A DNA stretch of 64,000 nt, from contig OX597816.1 in assembly GCA_951406725.2 (NCBI GenBank), positions 52,204,001-52,268,000 of the forward strand. The letters are read 5' to 3'. The notes beneath the pieces were generated by a model. The model had not been told where the DNA came from. It did not search any database and saw nothing but the letters and a program-made list of their open reading frames with translations. A program made the position numbers and the translations under genes. Below, in pieces: positions 1 to 54,004 of this stretch; the first letter of the stretch is position 1, and each line of letters opens with the position of its first letter. The stretch comes from Octopus vulgaris (lineage: Eukaryota).

Positions 1-1404
1 ACTCTTATATAACTCATAGGGTAGACCATCCAAACCCGGCGCCTTGCCCGCGCCGCAGTCCGCCATTGCCTCAACCACCTCCTCAGGCGTGATTGGCCCT
101 TCACAGCCCTCCGCATCTCGCCCCGATAAGCGCGGCAGCCCGTCGAGTAGGTCCGTAAAGGCCCTCCTCCTATCCAGTCCGCCGCACTCACCGAAAAGCT
201 GAGCGAAGTGCTCCTGAAAGGCCTCACACATCTCCTCGGGTTCGCTTATCAACTCACCTTGTTGGTTCGTCAAAGATCGAATCGTGGCATCGTTACCATG
301 CTGAGCTTCCACCACTCGGGCCCATCTCACGGCGTTGATTCCTTCACATCCCATATGGCGGATTCTAGCCCTGACAATGCAGCCCATGTGTTTGGCCTCG
401 AGGTGCTGGTTTAACACCAGTCTCTTGGACGCCACCTGAGCCGCAGAGCCAGTTTTCATGGCTTCCTCTAATTCCTTAACTAGAGTAGTTTCCCTTCTAG
501 CCTCTCTAGCCACTACTCCTATGCTATATCTAATAGACTCAAACTTGATGGCTCGTTTGAGGGCGTACCACCATTTGTTATTAATGATGGTACCAGATAG
601 TGCCCTCTGAATTATATTCCTAATCCGGTCTTTGTACTCCTTAATCGCCAAAAGGGACGTATTAAGTTTCCAGTAACCGGATCCTCTATTTTTAACCTTA
701 TCTATGTCAAGCTTACAAGTGACCATTTTATGATCACTGTAGCTGATCGGGTAAAACTGTGGACACTTAGCTATTTTACTGTCTACTTTTCTAATTAGTA
801 TTCTATCTAAATATGACCTGGAAGATCCGTCGCTGTTTGACCATGTCCACAATGGAGCGTTCGGAAATTCCAGCCTATAAGGATCTGCTAGCTCAAAGCG
901 GCTTAGCAGTTCCATGAAGCCACTGTTGCCTTTTCTATCTGGACGCGAGCCAACACAATCTACATCCGCTTTGCAAATTGTGTTAAAGTCTCCTAGCACC
1001 ACTAATGAATGCGAAGTACCAAGAAAGTTTTCTAATTCACGAAAATAATCACTTTGCCCTGTATGGTTGGGTGCGTAAATTGCAACCAGTCTGATAACTT
1101 TACCATTACTGAACGTCAAATCCATGACGACCAGCCTACCTTCTGGATCTGCAAAAATTAACTTTTTCTCAGGAACCCGGTTTCTTTTTAATAGGACCCC
1201 ACTCCCGCCTGTAGGACTGCCAGGAGAGAAAAAACTCTCGTAGCCGTCAAACAGCGGGAGTAGACCTCTTGGCCCCTCTAACCGGGTTTCTGTAGCAACA
1301 ATAACATCTAAATTACGCGACCTGATATCATGCAGGAAGCGACCTTGCTTCCAGCCTGCTCCCAGGCCGCGCACATTCAAACAACCAACGTAAATGTAAT
1401 CCAT
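1..1404 (-). CDS. ORF2 (APE endonuclease, linker and start of RT) of an L1/Tx1-clade non-LTR retrotransposon; runs off the left edge
   Basis: Manual translation from ATG at 1404 gives MDYIYVGCLNVRGL...VIVATETR...AIYAPN...VLGDFN...SYLDRILI...YSDHKMV (APE catalytic motifs), then GYWKLNTSLL and KAPGLDGLPYELYK (RT domain 0). No stop was seen in the frame down to position 1. It is absent from the ORF track, presumably because no stop lies in the window. Confidence 0.95.
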   Translation of the reverse strand, partial: MDYIYVGCLNVRGLGAGWKQGRFLHDIRSRNLDVIVATETRLEGPRGLLPLFDGYESFFSPGSPTGGSGVLLKRNRVPEKKLIFADPEGRLVVMDLTFSNGKVIRLVAIYAPNHTGQSDYFRELENFLGTSHSLVVLGDFNTICKADVDCVGSRPDRKGNSGFMELLSRFELADPYRLEFPNAPLWTWSNSDGSSRSYLDRILIRKVDSKIAKCPQFYPISYSDHKMVTCKLDIDKVKNRGSGYWKLNTSLLAIKEYKDRIRNIIQRALSGTIINNKWWYALKRAIKFESIRYSIGVVAREARRETTLVKELEEAMKTGSAAQVASKRLVLNQHLEAKHMGCIVRARIRHMGCEGINAVRWARVVEAQHGNDATIRSLTNQQGELISEPEEMCEAFQEHFAQLFGECGGLDRRRAFTDLLDGLPRLSGRDAEGCEGPITPEEVVEAMADCGAGKAPGLDGLPYELYKS

Positions 1405-1413
1405 TACTTACCT

Positions 1414-2388
1414 TTATATCAGTGGTTCGGTTTTCTCTTGTTCTTCTAACTCTTTTTCAGGGCCTCGTGGGGGAGTCTGACGTAGGCCCTCGAATATATA
1501 TGGAGATGTCACATCCAATCTAAGTGGGCCTACGTCATGGAAGAATTCTGACTTTATCCGCCCGTAATCCTTCCGGCCTATTCTGTAAATTACAAAGTCG
1601 TTTTTTTTCACTACTTTCTCCACTTTGGCCATGGCTGCCAACACGTTTCCGAGTCTGCTATTTGCTGCCTTTACGGCCATATACGAGTTCATTGACTCTC
1701 TTTTCTTTTTTAAAATTACTCTGGGAGGGGTGGTTTCCGTTTTTCTTTTTTTTTTTCCGGTAATTTTTGCCCACCCCTCCTCATCTATCTTTTCCACGCT
1801 CTTTTTTTCCTCCGCCGCTGGTTCTGCTGTCACCGTCACCTCCACACCTTCAGTCTTCCCTTCTGGGCCGTCCGACGCTGCTTCTGGTGACACATTATCT
1901 TCTTTTTCTTTTGGCTTAGGTGCTTCCTGCGGTTTGGGTTGGGGTTGGCATTCCGCCCTTACATGACCCTTCTTGCCGCAGCCGAAGCACCTCGGCTTCC
2001 TGCCCTCCACGAAAACTGTTATTTTCTCGTCTTCACTAATCTTTACCGTTTCTGGAATTTCTTCCAGTGTTTGCACCTCCGCCTGAATGGCTATCACTAT
2101 TTTCTGCCCTTTCCAAAACTCCTCTTCCTCCACTGTGGCCTGGAGGATGTTTATTTTTTCCTCCAGGCCTACCATCACTGCTGCCACCAGACATTCTGCA
2201 TCTGCCTCTGGCGGTATGTTGTTCATTGAAATTTTCGACGTCCTTTTTCCTTTATACAATGGTAGTAAGACAATGTTTTCTGCTTTGATCGGCTCCATCG
2301 ATAGTTTTTTCGCTATCTCCTCCGTAGTAAAACGCACCTCCACTGTGCCGTATCTTTTTCCTCTGTTTATATACGTTATTTTATCCAT
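1414..2388 (-). CDS. ORF1 (gag-like, CCHC zinc knuckle) of the Tx1-like element, C-terminal portion
   Basis: 324-aa ORF with CFGCGKKGHVRAEC (CX2CX4HX4C). It stops 9 nt before the ORF2 ATG and is in the same frame. Confidence 0.9.
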   Translation of the reverse strand: MDKITYINRGKRYGTVEVRFTTEEIAKKLSMEPIKAENIVLLPLYKGKRTSKISMNNIPPEADAECLVAAVMVGLEEKINILQATVEEEEFWKGQKIVIAIQAEVQTLEEIPETVKISEDEKITVFVEGRKPRCFGCGKKGHVRAECQPQPKPQEAPKPKEKEDNVSPEAASDGPEGKTEGVEVTVTAEPAAEEKKSVEKIDEEGWAKITGKKKRKTETTPPRVILKKKRESMNSYMAVKAANSRLGNVLAAMAKVEKVVKKNDFVIYRIGRKDYGRIKSEFFHDVGPLRLDVTSPYIFEGLRQTPPRGPEKELEEQEKTEPLI

Positions 2389-2769
2389 AAAAGGTTTTAG
2401 ACAAAACTCTATTTTTTTTTTCTTCGATTTTTTGGATCATTTTTGTCGTTGTGTCGTAAGTTTTATATATTATTCTTTTTTTTCTATATCGTCATGTTTT
2501 TGTATGTTTGTGGCCACAGTCACTTCTGTGCCCTCTTTTTTTACACAGTCTGCAAATTTTTCCAAATTTTCTACATTTATTTTTTTAATCTTTTTCCCAG
2601 CCACTTCAGCGAATTTTTTCGCTGGAGTTGATGCTGGTACTGGTTTTTCCATTTTCTTGGGCGACGCCGCCTCTTTTTTCTTCGGCGACAACGCCTCTTT
2701 TTTTCTTGGCGACAACGCCGGGTATTCATCCTCGCTCGTCACGGGCGAATAAGAGATGGGGGACTCCAT
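2389..2769 (-). pseudogene. N-terminal part of the same ORF1, separated by two compensating homopolymer frameshifts
   Basis: ORF 2470-2778 (ATG at 2769) is in the same frame as 1414-2388. Adjusting the runs at 2476-2483 and 2412-2421 by one base each gives ...DIEKKRIIYKTYDTTTKMIQKIEEKKIEFCLKPFMDKITY, which aligns with the second ORF1. Confidence 0.75.
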
Positions 2770-2985
2770 CTTGAACAAATGGCTTTAACAAGCCTTTGGT
2801 AAATCCAAATTAATTGTAGTTTTCCCCCACGGAGGGGGGGAACACCAACGCGAAGGCTGACTTCGTCAGTTAGACAACAATAAACAAAACAGGTAGACAG
2901 ACAGTATAGAATAACAAAGATAACAATACGAGAGCAAAAATATATCAACTTACTAATAAACGCAAAAATAGCTTGGAGCCATGTG

Positions 2986-4749
2986 ATTTTATTATTACCC
3001 ACAAGGGGCGAACATAGAGGGGACAATACAATCGGGGAACTTAAAATAAGAAAGCGAATGACAAGAAAAGGAAAAAATAAAAGTAAAAAATGACATATGA
3101 AAGAATATTTACAATGAGATGTAAATGCCCACTCGATCCCCGGAATCGAGAGGTTACATTTTCGTCACATATATTTCACAATATTTTCTTTTTTCTCTTC
3201 TTTCTTCTCTCTCTTCTCACAGTTCTATACGTATTCCATGATAGTTTTCAATTCTCTAAAGTCCATCACTGAGCCCTCAGGCAGCCGCTCTCTCACTCGA
3301 ACACTCGTGTAAAATGTTACACTCTCACCGGCAGCTCTGAGGAACTCAGCGACTCTTTCTTCGGGGATTAGAGCAGTCTCCTGCCACTGATCGGTCATCC
3401 TGTTGACCCACACATGTCCCTCCGTATTACTTGTCAAATCCTTCATTTCAGGGCAGAAATGGAAGGTTACTAACTTGTAGAAGCAGTAATCTTGTTTCCG
3501 TCCTACGTTTTCCTTCATTTTTCTTTTCGGGCTTATTTCTTCCTTGTTCTCCTCTCTTTGTTTCTCTCTTTCTCTCTTTTTGCCTTCTTTTCTTTCTCCT
3601 TCCTTCTCTTGTCTTTTTGGTTCTTTGTCTGTTCTCTCTTTCTCTCGTGTTTTATGTTCCTTTTCTTTTTCTTTTTGTGTGCCGTCTTTTCTTTTCGTTT
3701 GATTCTGATCTCTCTCTTGTTTTTTTCCTGTTGTTTCTTTTTCCTTTTTTTTTTCCTGACTCTGTTTTGGTTCTATTTCTTTCTTTTCTTTTATTTCTTT
3801 TTCCTTCATTGACTTATTATTTCCTTTCTCTTGTTGTTTTGTTTCCTTTTCTATGTTTTCTTTTTCATTTACCGTGTTCTTCTTTTCTTCGAGTTCCTGC
3901 TCGCACTCCGCTACGAATTCGTATAACGGGCACTCTTTTTTAATGTGCCCCCTTGTCCCGCACAAGTAGCAGTTTGGCTTTCTTCCCTCTACAATTACAC
4001 TGAGGGTTTTCTCATCTTCAATTTCTATTCTGTAGGGGAACCTTTCAATGTCCTCTTTTGTGGCCATCAAACACAGTTCTACCCCATATCCTCTCCAGTT
4101 TATCGCGTTGGACTCCTTAAAGGATCCCACCTCCACTTCCTCTTCTGCTGCTCCTAGAATAGCTGTTGCCAGCCATTCTGTTTTTACTTCTGGGGGTATA
4201 TTCGGGATTTTAACCCGGACCCCTCTTCTTCCCTTGTATGAGGGCCACATTATAAATGTTTCCGCTCTTAGTACAGTGGTAGCCAGTGAGGCTGCAATTT
4301 CTTCCGTTGCACATCTCACCTCCACCGTACCAAATTTCTTGCCTCTACTCACGTAGGTCGATTTCCCCATTATGTCTCCCAGACATTTTTCGATTTCTGC
4401 TATCTCCACTCTTGCCAGTTTCTTTGTATTTTTGTCTTGTGTTCTATATGTTACAGTCTTGTTTTCTTTGTCCTCTTTTGCTTTCGCGGGGGGATTAGCT
4501 TCACGCTATCACCCTCCCTTTTGAATAGCTTTTAATATTCTTTGAGTTTACTCTTCTCAAAGAAAACATCCTTCACGATTATCGACGAATCATTATTTTT
4601 CTTTCCCGTGACCCCCGCGTAAGTCGCCATGACTAGAGGGTCAATTCACCTTCTTCGGAAGGTTTCCACACGTGGAGGCAAACGCCTCGCGCGATAATAA
4701 TCAATTTACACAACAAAATTTCACTGTCTAATCACAGATAACAACACGT
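2986..4749 (-). mobile_element. ORF1-only non-autonomous Tx1-like retroelement (HAL1-like)
   Basis: The unit has a 5'UTR, ORF1 and a ~240-nt 3'UTR ending ...gccccttgtgggtaataataaaat, with no ORF2. It is flanked by identical ATAGCTTGGAGCCATGTG at 2968-2985 and 4750-4767. Confidence 0.72.
3225..4409 (-). CDS. Second ORF1/gag-like CCHC protein with a long Lys/Glu-rich region; the true start is probably the ATG at 4630, across one stop and one frameshift
   Basis: Contains CYLCGTRGHIKKEC. TYVSRGKKFGTVEVRCATEEIA aligns with TYINRGKRYGTVEVRFTTEEIA, and VEGRKP precedes the knuckle in both ORF1s. Upstream MATYAGVTGKK...KREGDSV aligns with FAEVAGKK...KKEGTEV. Confidence 0.88.
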   Translation of the reverse strand: MEIAEIEKCLGDIMGKSTYVSRGKKFGTVEVRCATEEIAASLATTVLRAETFIMWPSYKGRRGVRVKIPNIPPEVKTEWLATAILGAAEEEVEVGSFKESNAINWRGYGVELCLMATKEDIERFPYRIEIEDEKTLSVIVEGRKPNCYLCGTRGHIKKECPLYEFVAECEQELEEKKNTVNEKENIEKETKQQEKGNNKSMKEKEIKEKKEIEPKQSQEKKKEKETTGKKQERDQNQTKRKDGTQKEKEKEHKTREKERTDKEPKRQEKEGERKEGKKREREKQREENKEEISPKRKMKENVGRKQDYCFYKLVTFHFCPEMKDLTSNTEGHVWVNRMTDQWQETALIPEERVAEFLRAAGESVTFYTSVRVRERLPEGSVMDFRELKTIMEYV

Positions 4750-5098
4750 ATAGCTTGGAGCCATGTGTTCAAATCTTCTTTTTTCTCTACATTGTATAGA
4801 CAATAGTCTTTTCTTTAATTTAATTTTTTATTATCCATCTGGACTATTCCATTCCTGCACGCTAATTTTATTTTTAATTTATTCCTATTCATGTGAAACC
4901 ACTTATTCAAGTTCAAGTCATTGATGCAATTTTATACCAATTGCTATTTTTACTTTTGTTATGGTATTTTAGTCTGATTTTAATTATTACTTACTACATA
5001 TAATTCAATTGTTATTATTATTTTTATTGTTAAAGTGAAAGTATCTGACATAAAATAGAGAAACGTTTTTGTTTCACTTTTAACACGTAATACTGAAA

Positions 5099-5443
5099 TA
5101 GTGGAGCAGATATGATATTGCTATGGGCTCGCTCTAGGAAAGAACTTGAACATTGTTTTTACCCATGAAACTACGTGGACCCTAAGTAAGGCATGTGTAA
5201 AATTTGAATGGAATTGGTTGTGTAGTTCTCGAGTTTTAGGGAATCGTAGTGGAGGAGATATGATATTGCTGTGGGCTCGCCCTAGGCAAAAAGTTAAAAA
5301 TCTTTTTTGGGCCATGAAACTACATGGACCCTAAGTAAGGCATGTGTAAAATTTGAATGAAATTGGTTGTATAGTTCTCAAGTTTTAGGGAAACACACAG
5401 ACAGACAGACAGACACACATTCTCAGTTTTATATATATAAAGA
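5099..5443 (-). mobile_element. Non-autonomous Helitron-like element, 5' end, with two ~148-bp internal tandem units
   Basis: The minus strand starts A|TCTTTATATATATAAAA, followed by (GTCT)n and ...CAACCAATTTCATTCAAATTTTACAC, as is typical of Helitron-derived repeats. The repeat units start at 5099 and 5247. Confidence 0.6.
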
Positions 5444-6347
5444 TATATATATATATATAACTTACTTGGAAAATGATGCGTGGCGTTCGATCATATAATA
5501 ATATAAATAATATATAAATATATGCATATATACATACATATATGTACATACCTACATATATATATGTATATATACATGCATATACGGGTACAGGACATCA
5601 AAAAATCGTTGAACACAATGAGAAACGAAAACATAAAAAATAAAACATAGAAACGAACTTTTTTCGAACAATGAAAAAAACAAACAGGGAAACGGGATAT
5701 ACTACATAAAGAATATTCCTCTTCTTCAGTTGTCCAAAGGCTTTTAGTTCTTATTTATAGCAATGCGGTTGCTATCCTGCACCGTCGGTCACAATTAGTG
5801 ACAACTGAATCTTTCCTTTTTGTTTTTATATTGCTTATAGCCGCCTTCGTTGTTTTAGAGATAGATAGACAGATAGAGAAAGTGAGAGAGAGAGAGAGAG
5901 ATGTGAGTATGGGGGTTAATGTGATATACAAAATTTTTGTTGTAATTCAAAATATACTTGTTAAATAGATGCGATAATTTCTACTCGTGTTTAATATTTA
6001 AGAAATGTATTTAATCAACAAAAGTATTCAAGAATGAAAATATTTCCCTTCTAATTAATGAGCGGTATTGCCGCATTTTTACATCATGAAATAAACATTA
6101 TTAATAATTAATTATTAAGAAACAAATATCAGCACTTCTATTTTATTTCTCATTTTTAAAATTAAATATTTACAACCTTATTAATTTGCATAAATTATTG
6201 CGTTCCTTATTAATTATTACAATAATACTGTTCTAATTGTTTCTTGGGCTTTTAGGAAGTAATGATAGCCTACAGTGGAAACAAGAGATAAGTTTATTAA
6301 TGAAGACAGGCTCATGATCTAGCGAAAATGAAGGAGGATAGTGAAAA

Positions 6348-8433: not shown

Positions 8434-8986
8434 TTGGGTTGTCTGGAAAGTTTGTAGCTTACTTTTCGACTTATTTTAGAACATGGTTGAGTCCATAAAA
8501 TAGGATTTGACTACACCTCCATTTAGAGCACAGTTTTAGCTATCTTTTCGTGGAAGAAGGTTTATGTTCTTATAACCTGTGTTAATTCTGTAACCCTTTA
8601 AATTGGAAGATAAGAAAGTTCATTTTCGGCACTTGATGCTTTGAAAACCAGACAAAAATTGCTGCAGCTCGGCTGGGATGTGTTACCGCACCCTCCATAT
8701 TCACCATATATTGCTCCTTCGGATTTCCACTTATTCAGGTCTCTGCAGAATAGTCTTAATGGTAAAATTTTCAATTCCTTAGATGACGTAAAAAGATACC
8801 TTGATGAATTCTTTGCTATGAAACCACCTCAATTCTGTGAAGAGGGTATTTTCAAGTTAAAGGAAAGATGGAGGGGCATAGGGCAACAAAATGGTTCATA
8901 TTTGGTTGATTAAGAATGTAATGGCAAATATTTATTGACCTTTTTCTTTCCTTTAAAAATCGGCACGAACTTTCCGGACAATCCAA
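8434..8986 (+). mobile_element. Internally deleted mariner element
   Basis: TA-flanked TIRs (ttgggttgtc(t/c)ggaaagtt... / aactttccggacaatccaa). Transposase N-terminus (EDKKVHFRHLML) is fused to the C-terminus (LPHPPYSPYIAPSDFHLFRSLQNSL). Confidence 0.92.
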
Positions 8987-13147: not shown

Positions 13148-13631
13148 AGCAGCGAGCTGGCAGAAACGTTAGCGCGCCGGACGAAATGCTTAGCGGCATC
13201 TCGTCTGCCGTTACGTTCTGAGTTCAAGTTCCGCCGAAGTCGACTTTGCCTTTCATCCTTTTGGGGTCGATAAATTAAGTACCAGTTACGCACTGGGATC
13301 GATGTAATCGACTTAATCCCTTTTTCTGTCCTTGTTTGTCACCTCTATGTTTAGCCCCTTGTGGGCAGTAAAGAAATATATATTGTGTACTCTCTTTTCC
13401 TAACCTTGCAATAGGTATCTCGTCTGCCGTTACGTTCTGAGTTCAAGTTCCGCCGAAGTCGACTTTGCCTTTCATTCTTTTGGGGTCGATAAATTAAGTA
13501 CCAGTTTCGCACTGGGGTCGATGTAATCCACTTAATCCCTTTTTCTGTCCTTGTTTGTCCCCTCTATGTTTAGCCCCTTGTGGGCAGTAAAGAAATATAT
13601 ATTGTGTACTCTCTTTTCCTAACCTTGCAAT
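13148..13631 (+). mobile_element. SINE family 1, tail type A, with a local tandem duplication
   Basis: Head, body and tail A are present. The TSD tattgtgtactctcttttcctaa occurs at 13125-13147 and 13381-13403, and again after the second body. Confidence 0.9.
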
Positions 13632-27632: not shown

Positions 27633-28037
27633 TCCTTTCTGCCATAGGCACAAGACCTGAAAGTTTTTTTTTTGGGGGGGGGGACTAGTCGTTTACATCG
27701 ACCCGAGTGTTTCCCCGGTATTTAATATATCAATTCCGAAAGGATGAAAGGCAAAGTCGAATTTGAACGCAGAACGTAACGACGGGCGAAATACCTATGT
27801 CTTTACTGTCCACAAGGAGTTATACACAGAGGGGACAAACAAGGACAGGCAAAGGGATTAAGTCGATTACATCGACACCAGTGCGTAACTGCGTAACTGG
27901 TACTTTATTTATCCACCCCGAAAGGATGAAAGGCAAAGTCGACCTCGGCGGAATTTGAACTCAGAACGTAGCGGCAGACGAAATACTGCTAAGCATTTCA
28001 TCCGGCGTGTTAATGTTTCTGCCACCTCACCGCCTTC
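27633..28037 (-). mobile_element. SINE family 1 nested dimer (tail A copy inside a tail B copy)
   Basis: The junction is at 27795/27796. The outer TSD aagagttaaaataa lies at 27619-27632 and 28040-28053. Confidence 0.82.
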
Positions 28038-31860: not shown

Positions 31861-32193
31861 TATTTCTTTCTTTATTTGCTCACAAGGTGTTATACACAGA
31901 GGGAACAAACAAGGACAGACAAAGGGATTAAGTCGATTACATTGACCCCAGTGCGTAACTGGTACTTAATTTATCGACCCCGAAAGGATGAAAGGCAAAG
32001 TCGACCTCGGCGGAATTTGAACTCAGAACGTAGCGGCAGACGAAATACCTATTTCTTTACTACCCAGAAGGGGCTAAACATAGAGGGAACAAACAAAGAC
32101 GGACAAAGGGATTAAGTCGATTACATCGACCCCATTGCGTAACTGGTACTTTATTTATCGACCCCGAAAGGATGAAAGGCAAAGTCGACCTCG
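31861..32193 (-). mobile_element. SINE family 1 dimer (tail A plus tail A)
   Basis: The junction cgaaatacc|tatttcttt is at 32049/32050. Confidence 0.85.
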
Positions 32194-35114: not shown

Positions 35115-35156
35115 TATTTCTTTATTGCCCACAAGGGGCTAAACATAGAGGGGACA
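35115..35156 (-). mobile_element. 42-bp solo tail-A retroinsertion with a 19-bp TSD
   Basis: ataagtattcc(a/t)gcatatt at 35096-35114 and 35157-35175 flanks tatttctttattgcccacaaggggctaaacatagaggggaca. Confidence 0.8.
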
Positions 35157-35572
35157 ATAAGTATTCCTGCATATTGCACTTGCATTTCTTTATTGTTAAC
35201 GCGAATGTGTTGACAGTGTGTGTGGTTAGGGCACTGCACTAACGATTTCGAGTTCGTGGTTTCAGTTCCAGAACCGGGTGGTGTGTTGTGCTCTTGGGAA
35301 AAAAAATTCATCTAACGTTGATTTGTGATCACCTTGACGCCTGACTGTTGGCGCATCTTGAAACTGTTCAGGCAACGTCTAGTTGGTGAAAGGAGAGAAA
35401 TAATGTACACTACTACAAACATTTGATCACTATAAACAAATAATTTGTGCAGGTCGTTCAACAAAGCTTGAACTCACATGCGCCGTCTTCGACAGGAGAT
35501 TCCATCATGTAAAGAGAGATAGAGAGAGAGTGAGAGAGATATGAATGTGTGTGATATATATATGTAAGTGTG

Positions 35573-35805
35573 AAGGCGACGAGCTGGCAGAAACGTTAGC
35601 ACGCCGGGCGAAATGCGTAGCCGTATTTCGTCTGTCTTTACGTTCTGAGTTCAAATTCCGCCGAGGTCGACTTTGCTTTTCATCCTTTCGGGGTCGATAA
35701 ATTAAGTACCAGTTTCGCACTGGGGTCGATGTAATCAACTTAATCCCTTTGTCTGTCCTTGTTTGTTCCCTCTATGTTTAGCCCCTTCTGGGTAGTAAAG
35801 AAATA
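35573..35805 (+). mobile_element. SINE family 1, tail A, full length
   Basis: aaggcgacgagctggcagaaacg...gccccttctgggtagtaaagaaat. Confidence 0.9.
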
Positions 35806-39332: not shown

Positions 39333-39334
<2 letters not shown>

Positions 39335-39555
39335 TGGCAGATACGTTAGCCCGCCGGGCGAAATACTCTGCGGTATTTCGTCTGCCGTTACGTTCTGAGT
39401 TCAAATTCCGCCGAAGTCGACTTTGCCTTTCATCCTTTCGGGGTCGATAAATAAAGTACCAGTTTCGCACTGGGGTCGATGTAATCGACTTAATCCCTTT
39501 GTCTGTCCTTGTTTGTCCCCTCTATGTTTAGCCCCTTGTAGGCAATAGAGAAATA
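39333..39555 (+). mobile_element. SINE family 1, tail A
   Basis: Matches 35573-35805. Confidence 0.88.
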
Positions 39556-48744: not shown

Positions 48745-49100
48745 GTGCCAAGCTGGCAGAATCGTTAGCACACCGGGCGAAATGTTTAGCGGTATTTCGT
48801 CTGTCTTTACGTTCTGAGTTCAAATTCCGTCGAGGTCGACTTTGCCTTTCATCCTTTCGGGATCGATAAATTAAGTACCAGTTACGCACTGGGGTCGATG
48901 TAATCGACTTAATCCATTTGTCTGTCCTTGTTTGTCTCCTCTGTGTTTAGCCCCTTGTGGGTAGTAAAGAAATAGGTATTTCGTCTACCGCTACGTTCTG
49001 AGTTCAAATTCCGCCGAGGTCGACTTTGCCTTTTATCCTTTCGAGGTCGATAAATTAAGTACCAGTTACGCAATGGGGTCGATATAATCGACTTAATCCC
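48745..49100 (+). mobile_element. SINE family 1 dimer
   Basis: The junction aaagaaata|ggtatttcgtct is at 48974/48975. Confidence 0.85.
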
Positions 49101-50034: not shown

Positions 50035-50270
50035 TGTATTTATTTATTGCCCACAAGGGGCTAAACACAGAGGGGACAAAAAATGACAGACAAAGGGGAT
50101 TAAGTCGATTACATTGACTCCAGTGCGTAACTGGTACTTAATTTATCGACCCCGAAAGGATGAAAGGCAAAGTCGACCTCAGCGGAATTTGAACTCAGAA
50201 CGTAGCGGCAGACGAAATACCGCTAAGCATTTCGCCCGACGTGCTAACGTTTCTGCCAGCTCACCGCCTT
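50035..50270 (-). mobile_element. SINE family 1, tail A, full length, with an imperfect TSD
   Basis: Flanked by ttgcaat(a/c)aatc(g/c)tatt. Confidence 0.88.
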
Positions 50271-53418: not shown

Positions 53419-53652
53419 AAAGGCGGCGAGCTGGCAGAAACGTTAGCGCGCCGGGCGAAATGCTTAGCTGTATTTCGTCTGTCGTTACGTTCTGAGTTCA
53501 AATTCCGCCGGGGTCGACTTTGCCTTTCATCCTCTCGGGGTCGATAAATAAAGTACCAGTTACGCACTGGGGTCGATGTAATCGACTTAATACCTATGTC
53601 TGTCCTTGTTTGTCCCCTCTATGTTTAGCCTCTTGTGGGTAATAAAGAAATA
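53419..53652 (+). mobile_element. SINE family 1, tail A, full length, with a 17-bp TSD
   Basis: ggtatcgtcgtcgtcgt occurs on both sides. Confidence 0.9.
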
Positions 53653-54004
53653 GGTATCGTCGTCGTCGTCGTCATCATTGTTGTTACTGCTTAACTCTAG
53701 ATCTAACTTAATATAGCCAAGTAAAATTGTGATCAATACGTTCCAGTTACAACCAACCCGTCATTTCAAGGGTGTGCAGGTTTCTATTAACAAAAGTCTT
53801 TGGTGGTGTAGACTTAAAACGTCATCCAGTTTAACAACACCGTATGCAACTTTAGGTGCCTTTATTGGAGTTCCCTCTGTTGTAAGCATTTTGACGAGGT
53901 CTCCAGCTTGAGGTTACCTTTCACCCTCCGTCCTAACAGTCGCAGGCGCCTTATAATGGTTCATAGGTACTGCCATCCCTCCTGGCTAAAAGATAACAAT
54001 ACTA

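Follow-up and report, generated by a model that had tools for sequence, protein, structure and literature searches.

Does an ORF1 gene that has no ORF2 and lies at the 5' end of a LINE belong to a retrotransposon of its own, or is it a part of something larger? The question is raised by a locus of Octopus vulgaris, which was analysed within a stretch of 64 kb (the window). Unit A, a minus-strand segment of 1764 bp (window 2986-4749), lies between exact 18-bp direct repeats. Read on the minus strand, the order is an AT-rich flank, the 18-mer (4767-4750), unit A (4749-2986), the 18-mer again (2985-2968), and element B, an L1/Tx1-like LINE that adjoins unit A in the same orientation and runs off the window edge. 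Unit A is probably an ORF1-only non-autonomous LINE of the HAL1, HeT-A and Ag-Sponge design, derived from a Tx1-like lineage. Because it has an ORF1, no copying enzyme, a tail in common with a SINE and an exact 18-base duplication, it is likely to be a parasitic half-retrotransposon. The features of the locus are:

4750..4767, minus strand: 18-bp direct repeat, 5' copy, exact match, likely target-site duplication
4631..4749, minus strand: 5'UTR of unit A, 119 nt
3225..4630, minus strand: ORF1a of unit A; ATG at 4630, stop at 4534, frame change near 4490-4505, open frame 4505-3225 (426 codons)
3984..4457, minus strand: two predicted RRM-like domains of ORF1a (AlphaFold, Foldseek, VIA), limits approximate
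3930..3971, minus strand: CCHC zinc knuckle of ORF1a (Pfam PF00098, zf-CCHC, 23.1 bits, cut-off 20.8)
3504..3914, minus strand: K/E-rich low-complexity linker of ORF1a, from the sequence
3228..3503, minus strand: C-terminal domain of ORF1a, about 92 aa, the most variable part among the copies
2986..3224, minus strand: 3'UTR of unit A, 239 nt, T-rich, without ORF2 remnant
2986..3031, minus strand: 46-nt 3' tail of unit A, 83% identical to one SINE tail type
2968..2985, minus strand: 18-bp direct repeat, 3' copy, between the tail and the 5'UTR of element B without a gap
2770..2967, minus strand: 5'UTR of element B, reaching to the 3' copy of the 18-mer, 5' limit tentative
1414..2769, minus strand: ORF1b of element B, with two compensating frame changes in A-runs near 2480-2415
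1..1407, minus strand: ORF2 of element B, APE-type endonuclease and linker, open to the window edge

Boundaries of unit A

The 18-mer reads CACATGGCTCCAAGCTAT on the minus strand and has two exact occurrences in the window (4750-4767 and 2968-2985). When four mismatches were tolerated, the window gave one extra match, which was unrelated. It is the sole exact 18-bp repeat within 2701-5049 and lies 0 nt from either end of unit A; any exact 18-mer repeat appeared in 5 of 1000 order-3 Markov simulations of this region. A preliminary description of the locus had proposed a unit bounded by such a repeat and composed of a 5'UTR, an ORF1 homologue, a CCHC knuckle, a K/E-rich region and its own 3' end, and all of these parts were found where it had placed them. 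Its statement that the unit has no ORF2 also held, and no ORF2 remnant was detected in unit A by tblastn with 120 ORF2 homologues (10 matches, best E 1.9). This copy therefore shows the properties of an ORF1-present non-autonomous LINE, which are ORF1 without ORF2, an own 3' end and a duplication.

The 5'UTRs of unit A and element B share a weak 20-nt likeness, the score of which was equalled in 33 of 1000 shuffles. The 3'UTR of unit A folded no better than shuffled sequence (z -0.24). Rfam gave no match at the 18-mer or inside unit A, so an snRNA, tRNA or rRNA target was not found; ARAGORN predicted 0 tRNAs, and prokaryote contigs contained 0 matches to the 18-mer or to a tail pattern. Just upstream of unit A (5099-5460) lies a pair of tandem 149-bp units that are 88% alike, and behind them a (CAGA)n tract and a TA run; no second copy of this element is present in the window. 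It is presumably akin to a Helentron-type non-autonomous element, and could be a host repeat that contained the 18-mer. Farther away, a 99-codon frame at 8614-8913 reads by eye like the C-terminal part of a mariner transposase.

The same boundaries bear on an unlikely alternative, in which ORF1a is the ORF1 of a further autonomous L1/Tx1 family and the copy described here arose once, by an internal deletion that removed ORF2 and left the 3' tail in place. The junction carries no ORF2 remnant, and the 239-nt 3'UTR is ordinary-looking. Moreover, ORF1a is annotated at 25 other accessions, whereas the ORF2-linked ORF1b of the window was not retrieved; this weakly suggests that ORF1a escapes LINE masking, though four sister ORF1b models are annotated. 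On the other side, the ORF2 genes of this group are unannotated in the protein sets searched and could lie unseen behind other ORF1a models. Also in its favour, 80 L1-Tx1 consensus families, 13 of them recently active, are described from O. vulgaris (PMC13282606).

ORF1a and its predicted protein

The ORF1a of this copy is broken near its start by a premature stop at 4534 and then a frame change, through mutation or assembly error. The N-terminal frame, read through with X, aligns to the N-terminus of an intact B-type ORF1 (score reached by 15 of 2000 shuffles) and less well to that of the window's own element B (87 of 2000). ORF1a and ORF1b are 39% identical over 155 aa (E 2e-39), and their C-terminal domains have no detectable similarity (HHalign probability 0.2%), in line with the earlier description of a diverged ORF1 with a different C-terminal domain. 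Because the break lies upstream of the predicted RRM1 and the first in-frame Met (residue 46) falls inside it, this copy has no capacity for a whole ORF1p. The proposal that the unit supplies its own RNP chaperone hence fails for this copy as sequenced, although for the family as a whole it is plausible.

The first 193 residues of the ORF1a long frame were modelled with AlphaFold (9-sequence alignment, mean pLDDT 65), and the model has two alpha/beta domains. The top Foldseek matches are tandem-RRM proteins (E 1e-4; 8 matches at E <=0.001) with a TM of only about 0.3; VIA gave Z of 7-8 to RRM/ACT-type folds, a range that it rates as common. The L1 ORF1p is absent among the fold matches listed, which excludes nothing.

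The C-terminal domain had no credible relative beyond its own family in a phmmer search of 1.84 billion proteins, where four long multi-stretch matches besides the family were treated as repeat noise. Its single-sequence model is poor (pLDDT 50) and had no Foldseek match at E 0.001, and ESM Atlas returned no usable match for it.

Element B and its probable relation to the Tx1 clade

The ORF2 of element B contains a PF03372 endonuclease, with human L1 ORF2p as its best PDB match (E 2e-22), and its closest homologues among the matches listed are EN-RT(-zf-RVT) proteins. The name 'TX1' is carried by 2 of the 120 ORF2 homologues listed, both distant and fungal. ORF1s with RRM and CCHC from non-mammalian animals have been linked to the Tx1 clade (PMC5203782). 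Two marks of this clade were found here, namely the RRM (predicted) plus CCHC in ORF1, and, in element B, an APE endonuclease of the L1 group in ORF2. The probable Tx1 membership rests on this ORF1 type and the L1-group endonuclease. The RT domain and the 3' end of element B lie beyond the window edge. Thus the earlier claim that the unit is docked on a full, autonomous Tx1-like LINE stands for the abutment, the orientation, the ORF1 and the endonuclease; whereas 'full' and 'autonomous' say more than a window that ends before the RT can carry.

The frame changes of ORF1b look like slippage or assembly error. Alignment of the element B ORF2 gave 14 distant GC-rich loci in metagenome contigs and 0 loci in viral contigs. 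When protein sets were searched with ORF1b and ORF2, neither the element B proteins of the window itself nor any named octopus ORF2 were recovered. Since element B was not retrieved even where it adjoins unit A, the missing element B gene models beside ORF1a clusters prove little. In O. vulgaris, a sister subfamily of ORF1b has four annotated models. Proteins P0035-P0040 fall into two B-type ORF1 subfamilies, the cores of which are about 78% identical; each of the two is present in O. vulgaris and in O. sinensis. Two of the O. vulgaris accessions of B-type models are consecutive, and two models are named 'EPM2A-interacting 1-like'.

The 3' tail and the SINE copies of the window

The tail of unit A is predicted to form a 4-bp stem with a 5-nt loop and an A-rich end. 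The stem-loop is kept in most of 11 sequences, with compensatory changes in 0 of 4 pairs. A SINE query had 33 BLAST matches in the window, among them the tail of unit A. Unit A matches only the end of one SINE tail, and the SINE body is absent from it. The same SINE body occurs in the window with at least three different 3' tails, as would be expected if the tails are swappable LINE-recognition modules. The tail of unit A could come from another LINE clade, or could have been acquired from a SINE.

Ten SINE stretches have the tail type of unit A. Flanking repeats of 17-23 bp follow directly after the tail in six of these (two are low-complexity); one is a tandem-copy junction, and three have no flanking repeat. 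The 18-mer agrees with the SINE duplications in position and size range, and unit A is therefore most easily understood as the product of a single target-primed insertion. The target sites of the tail-bearing SINE copies are unrelated to the 18-mer and to one another, which argues against strict 18-mer specificity. The evidence on a target preference is divided: the abutment and the clustering of copies favour it, whereas the unrelated SINE target sites are against it.

SINEs make up 11.6% of the O. vulgaris genome (PMC13282606). Copies in the window are located at 13155-13597, 27794-28027, 31867-32193, 35582-35805, 39333-39555, 48751-49099, 50037-50261, 53429-53654 and elsewhere; the SINE is presumably of the octopus 'OK' type. 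In several cases two copies stand in tandem, the tail of one being fused to an internal position of the next that is the same each time. A tail-only insertion of 43 bp with its own 19-bp duplication (1 mismatch) was observed at 35115-35157, and it starts at about the point where the likeness to the unit A tail begins.

The ORF1a family in Octopus vulgaris

The search with the ORF1a core gave 8 protein clusters, and all the named ones are from Octopus vulgaris. They hold 30 members, 22 with ORF1a sequence (one being the window's own) and 8 with a different 89-aa ORF only. The 21 other ORF1a proteins correspond to 25 accessions, which are spread over 8 chromosome-scale contigs and one scaffold; the ORF1a family is thus multi-copy at the protein level. 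These about 25 'hypothetical protein' accessions of O. vulgaris are probably copies of the unit A mobile element. The copies are intronless, and several have apparent frame changes (P0002, P0012). An intact full-length ORF1a was not seen among them, and the gene-model starts are uninformative here; the model of the window's own ORF1a starts at an internal Met of the open frame. No close orthologue from other species was present among the 8 ORF1a core matches, and ORF1a had no loci in metagenome or prokaryote contigs. At least half of the sampled words of unit A were held by 20 of the 24 sequencing runs listed (10 studies, 3 organism labels; one run may be the source sample), and no RNA runs holding such words were among the runs listed.

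In the core tree (14 rows, 4 of them short), unit A and its diverged subfamilies were separated from both B subfamilies by a split with 100/100 support. A separate ORF1a clade with its own subfamilies means that unit A is not a fresh deletion of element B, and the long-independent lineage suspected earlier is thereby supported. Compared with three diverged copies, unit A has an identity of 42/48 to 45/51 (86-88%) in the core and of 54/135 to 85/137 (40-62%) in the linker; the better conservation of the core across subfamilies suggests past purifying selection on it. In an alignment of 14 close copies, variation affected 1 of the 51 core columns, 13 of the 137 linker columns and 19 of the 92 columns of the C-terminal domain. 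The difference between C-terminal domain and linker has a Fisher p of 0.02, the copies being non-independent. The close copies are also mosaic, with haplotype blocks in mixed combinations; together with the C-terminal variability this suggests diversifying selection or recombination.

The ORF1a accessions are clustered: 9 of 20 lie within 2 numbers of another, compared with 0.05 expected if random, on the assumption that accession order reflects genome position. The null was a uniform placement over an assumed 29,200 numbers, and 9 was never reached in 20,000 draws. The count leaves out three accessions of identical sequence (possible isoforms) and two of another series, themselves consecutive. 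Such clusters might be A-A or A-B arrays, or they might be built of an autonomous family whose ORF2 is masked.

The neighbours of ORF1a vary, with a LINE downstream in the window and an unrelated-looking 89-aa ORF joined upstream in four gene models (P0003, P0016, P0026, P0027). The 89-aa ORF is absent from the window. It also occurs alone (P0014, P0015, P0023-P0025, P0028-P0030), one sequence being found on 9 contigs. A different ORF1 may have it as its C-terminal domain, or it may be an additional ORF of a LINE. Its similarity to the C-terminal domain of ORF1a is borderline. A common fold for the C-terminal domains of ORF1a and ORF1b and the 89-aa ORF was considered and not demonstrated (HHalign probability 0.2-0.3%; comparison scores reached by 11 to 496 of 2000 shuffles over 9 variants, and by 70 of 980 in the HMM version).

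These neighbours also bear on whether unit A and element B now form one long LINE with two ORF1 genes, or a read-through array, with the internal tail and the 18-mer as relics. The exact abutment in the same orientation is consistent with this. The ORF1a clusters could then be arrays of fused units, element B being unannotated, and the four gene models that contain both the 89-aa ORF and ORF1a would suit head-to-tail arrays, provided that this ORF lies in the 3' part of the LINE. However, the tail is complete and the 5' flank is repeated exactly and immediately behind it, which is the mark of a separate insertion; four O. vulgaris accessions of the sister ORF1b have no listed ORF1a accession adjoining, and a literature search on LINEs with two ORF1 genes gave nothing relevant. 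The fused arrangement is accordingly judged quite unlikely, and the simpler form of it that the preliminary description had kept as its alternative, a single LINE carrying two ORF1 genes, fits poorly with the tail and the exact duplication between the two genes.

The clustered, near-identical gene models and their mosaic haplotypes would also suit a domesticated and tandemly amplified host gene family (L1TD1-like), of which this copy would be a retrocopy made through a SINE-tail transcript end. The tail-only SINE fragment with its 19-bp duplication (35115-35157) indicates that such fragments do insert alone. Nevertheless, this origin seems very improbable: intronless copies, several with apparent frame changes, are spread over 8 chromosomes, the 8 matches include no close orthologue from another species, and this copy is broken and adjoins a LINE.

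Proposed mode of mobilization

For unit A as an ORF1-only element, a scheme can be drawn up from its anatomy and known LINE biology; the identity of the partner and the lack of ORF2 in the other copies are likewise presumed. A master copy of the family would be transcribed from its own 5' end, and the ORF1p of the family (two RRMs and CCHC) would coat its own RNA. The ORF2p of a full L1/Tx1-type LINE, as partner, would then bind the stem-loop tail, nick the target and reverse-transcribe from the tail; staggered cleavage at the target would create the duplication of about 18 bp. This copy might have entered a related LINE within its 5' end or right at it. Element B, by kinship and position, would be the obvious candidate for the partner. 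The clustering of copies likely arose through insertion beside related elements and/or unequal recombination.

A wider reading is conceivable but doubtful. Several ORF1-only Tx1 derivatives of the octopus (the unit A family, its subfamilies and the family of the 89-aa ORF) would dock head-to-tail with autonomous Tx1-like LINEs by means of an 18-bp target that is recreated at each insertion. If this were true, the arrays would be interstitial, mixed and HeT-A/TART-like, the C-terminal domain of their ORF1 would be fast-evolving, and the common tail would reveal that a major octopus SINE subfamily is driven by a Tx1-type LINE.

Comparison with known systems

HeT-A, HAL1 and Ag-Sponge are ORF1-present non-autonomous LINEs of the Jockey, L1 and CR1 clades, respectively (PMC5786205). 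A Tx1-type case from a mollusc would add a fourth origin of ORF1-only LINEs to these three. It would also allow a test of why such parasites retain an ORF1 of their own while SINEs manage without one, and the common tail offers a direct route to the LINE that mobilises part of an octopus SINE family. The literature searched contained neither an ORF1-only Tx1 element nor such an element from octopus; Repbase, Dfam and the PMC13282606 TE library may contain one. A term search of the text and supplement of PMC13282606 found neither HAL1 nor ORF1 in use; PMC4758252 and PMC3747384 served as background only. The design is already known from mammals and insects.

Unit A would resemble HeT-A of Drosophila and Ag-Sponge of Anopheles in that an ORF1-only element is paired with a relative that is autonomous. 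In the case of HeT-A, the two are found mixed in head-to-tail arrays, and telomeric arrays follow an orientation rule. Unit A is different from both in its LINE clade and in having a target-site duplication, and from HeT-A also in that its 5' end points toward ordinary DNA, opposite to a telomeric array. A telomeric array at this locus was rejected on this orientation, the 5' end of unit A facing 59 kb of ordinary DNA.

Tx1 elements have target preferences, and in crocodilians the Tx1-mobilised SINEU-3 forms tandem copies that sandwich a TSD (PMC4494074). The SINEU-3/Tx1-Mar system and unit A are alike as non-autonomous copies in tandem with a TSD between. They differ in that SINEU-3 encodes no protein and that the target Mariner-N4_AMi is established for SINEU, whereas none was identified for unit A.

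The closest parallel is HAL1 (half-L1) of mammals (Smit 1999; Bao and Jurka 2010; as cited in PMC5753468, PMC5786205 and PMC3627910). Both are non-autonomous LINE derivatives with a 5'UTR, ORF1 only and a 3' end, and a long-lived coding capacity and a need of ORF2p in trans would be common to both, as is presumed for unit A. The earlier designation of the unit as HAL1-like is supported by its own 3' end, its duplication and its multi-copy family; whereas a HAL1 in the strict sense, a derivative of the mammalian L1, is not at hand, as the CCHC is present and relatives were found only in Octopus. The mammalian L1 ORF1p is not known to have a CCHC knuckle. Unit A further differs from HAL1 in its mollusc host, in an ORF1 of the RRM plus CCHC type instead of the mammalian L1 type, in a sequence-defined tail common to a SINE, and in clustered copies, one of which adjoins a related LINE. 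Judged by its anatomy, unit A would work like HAL1, yet it is not a mammalian HAL1.
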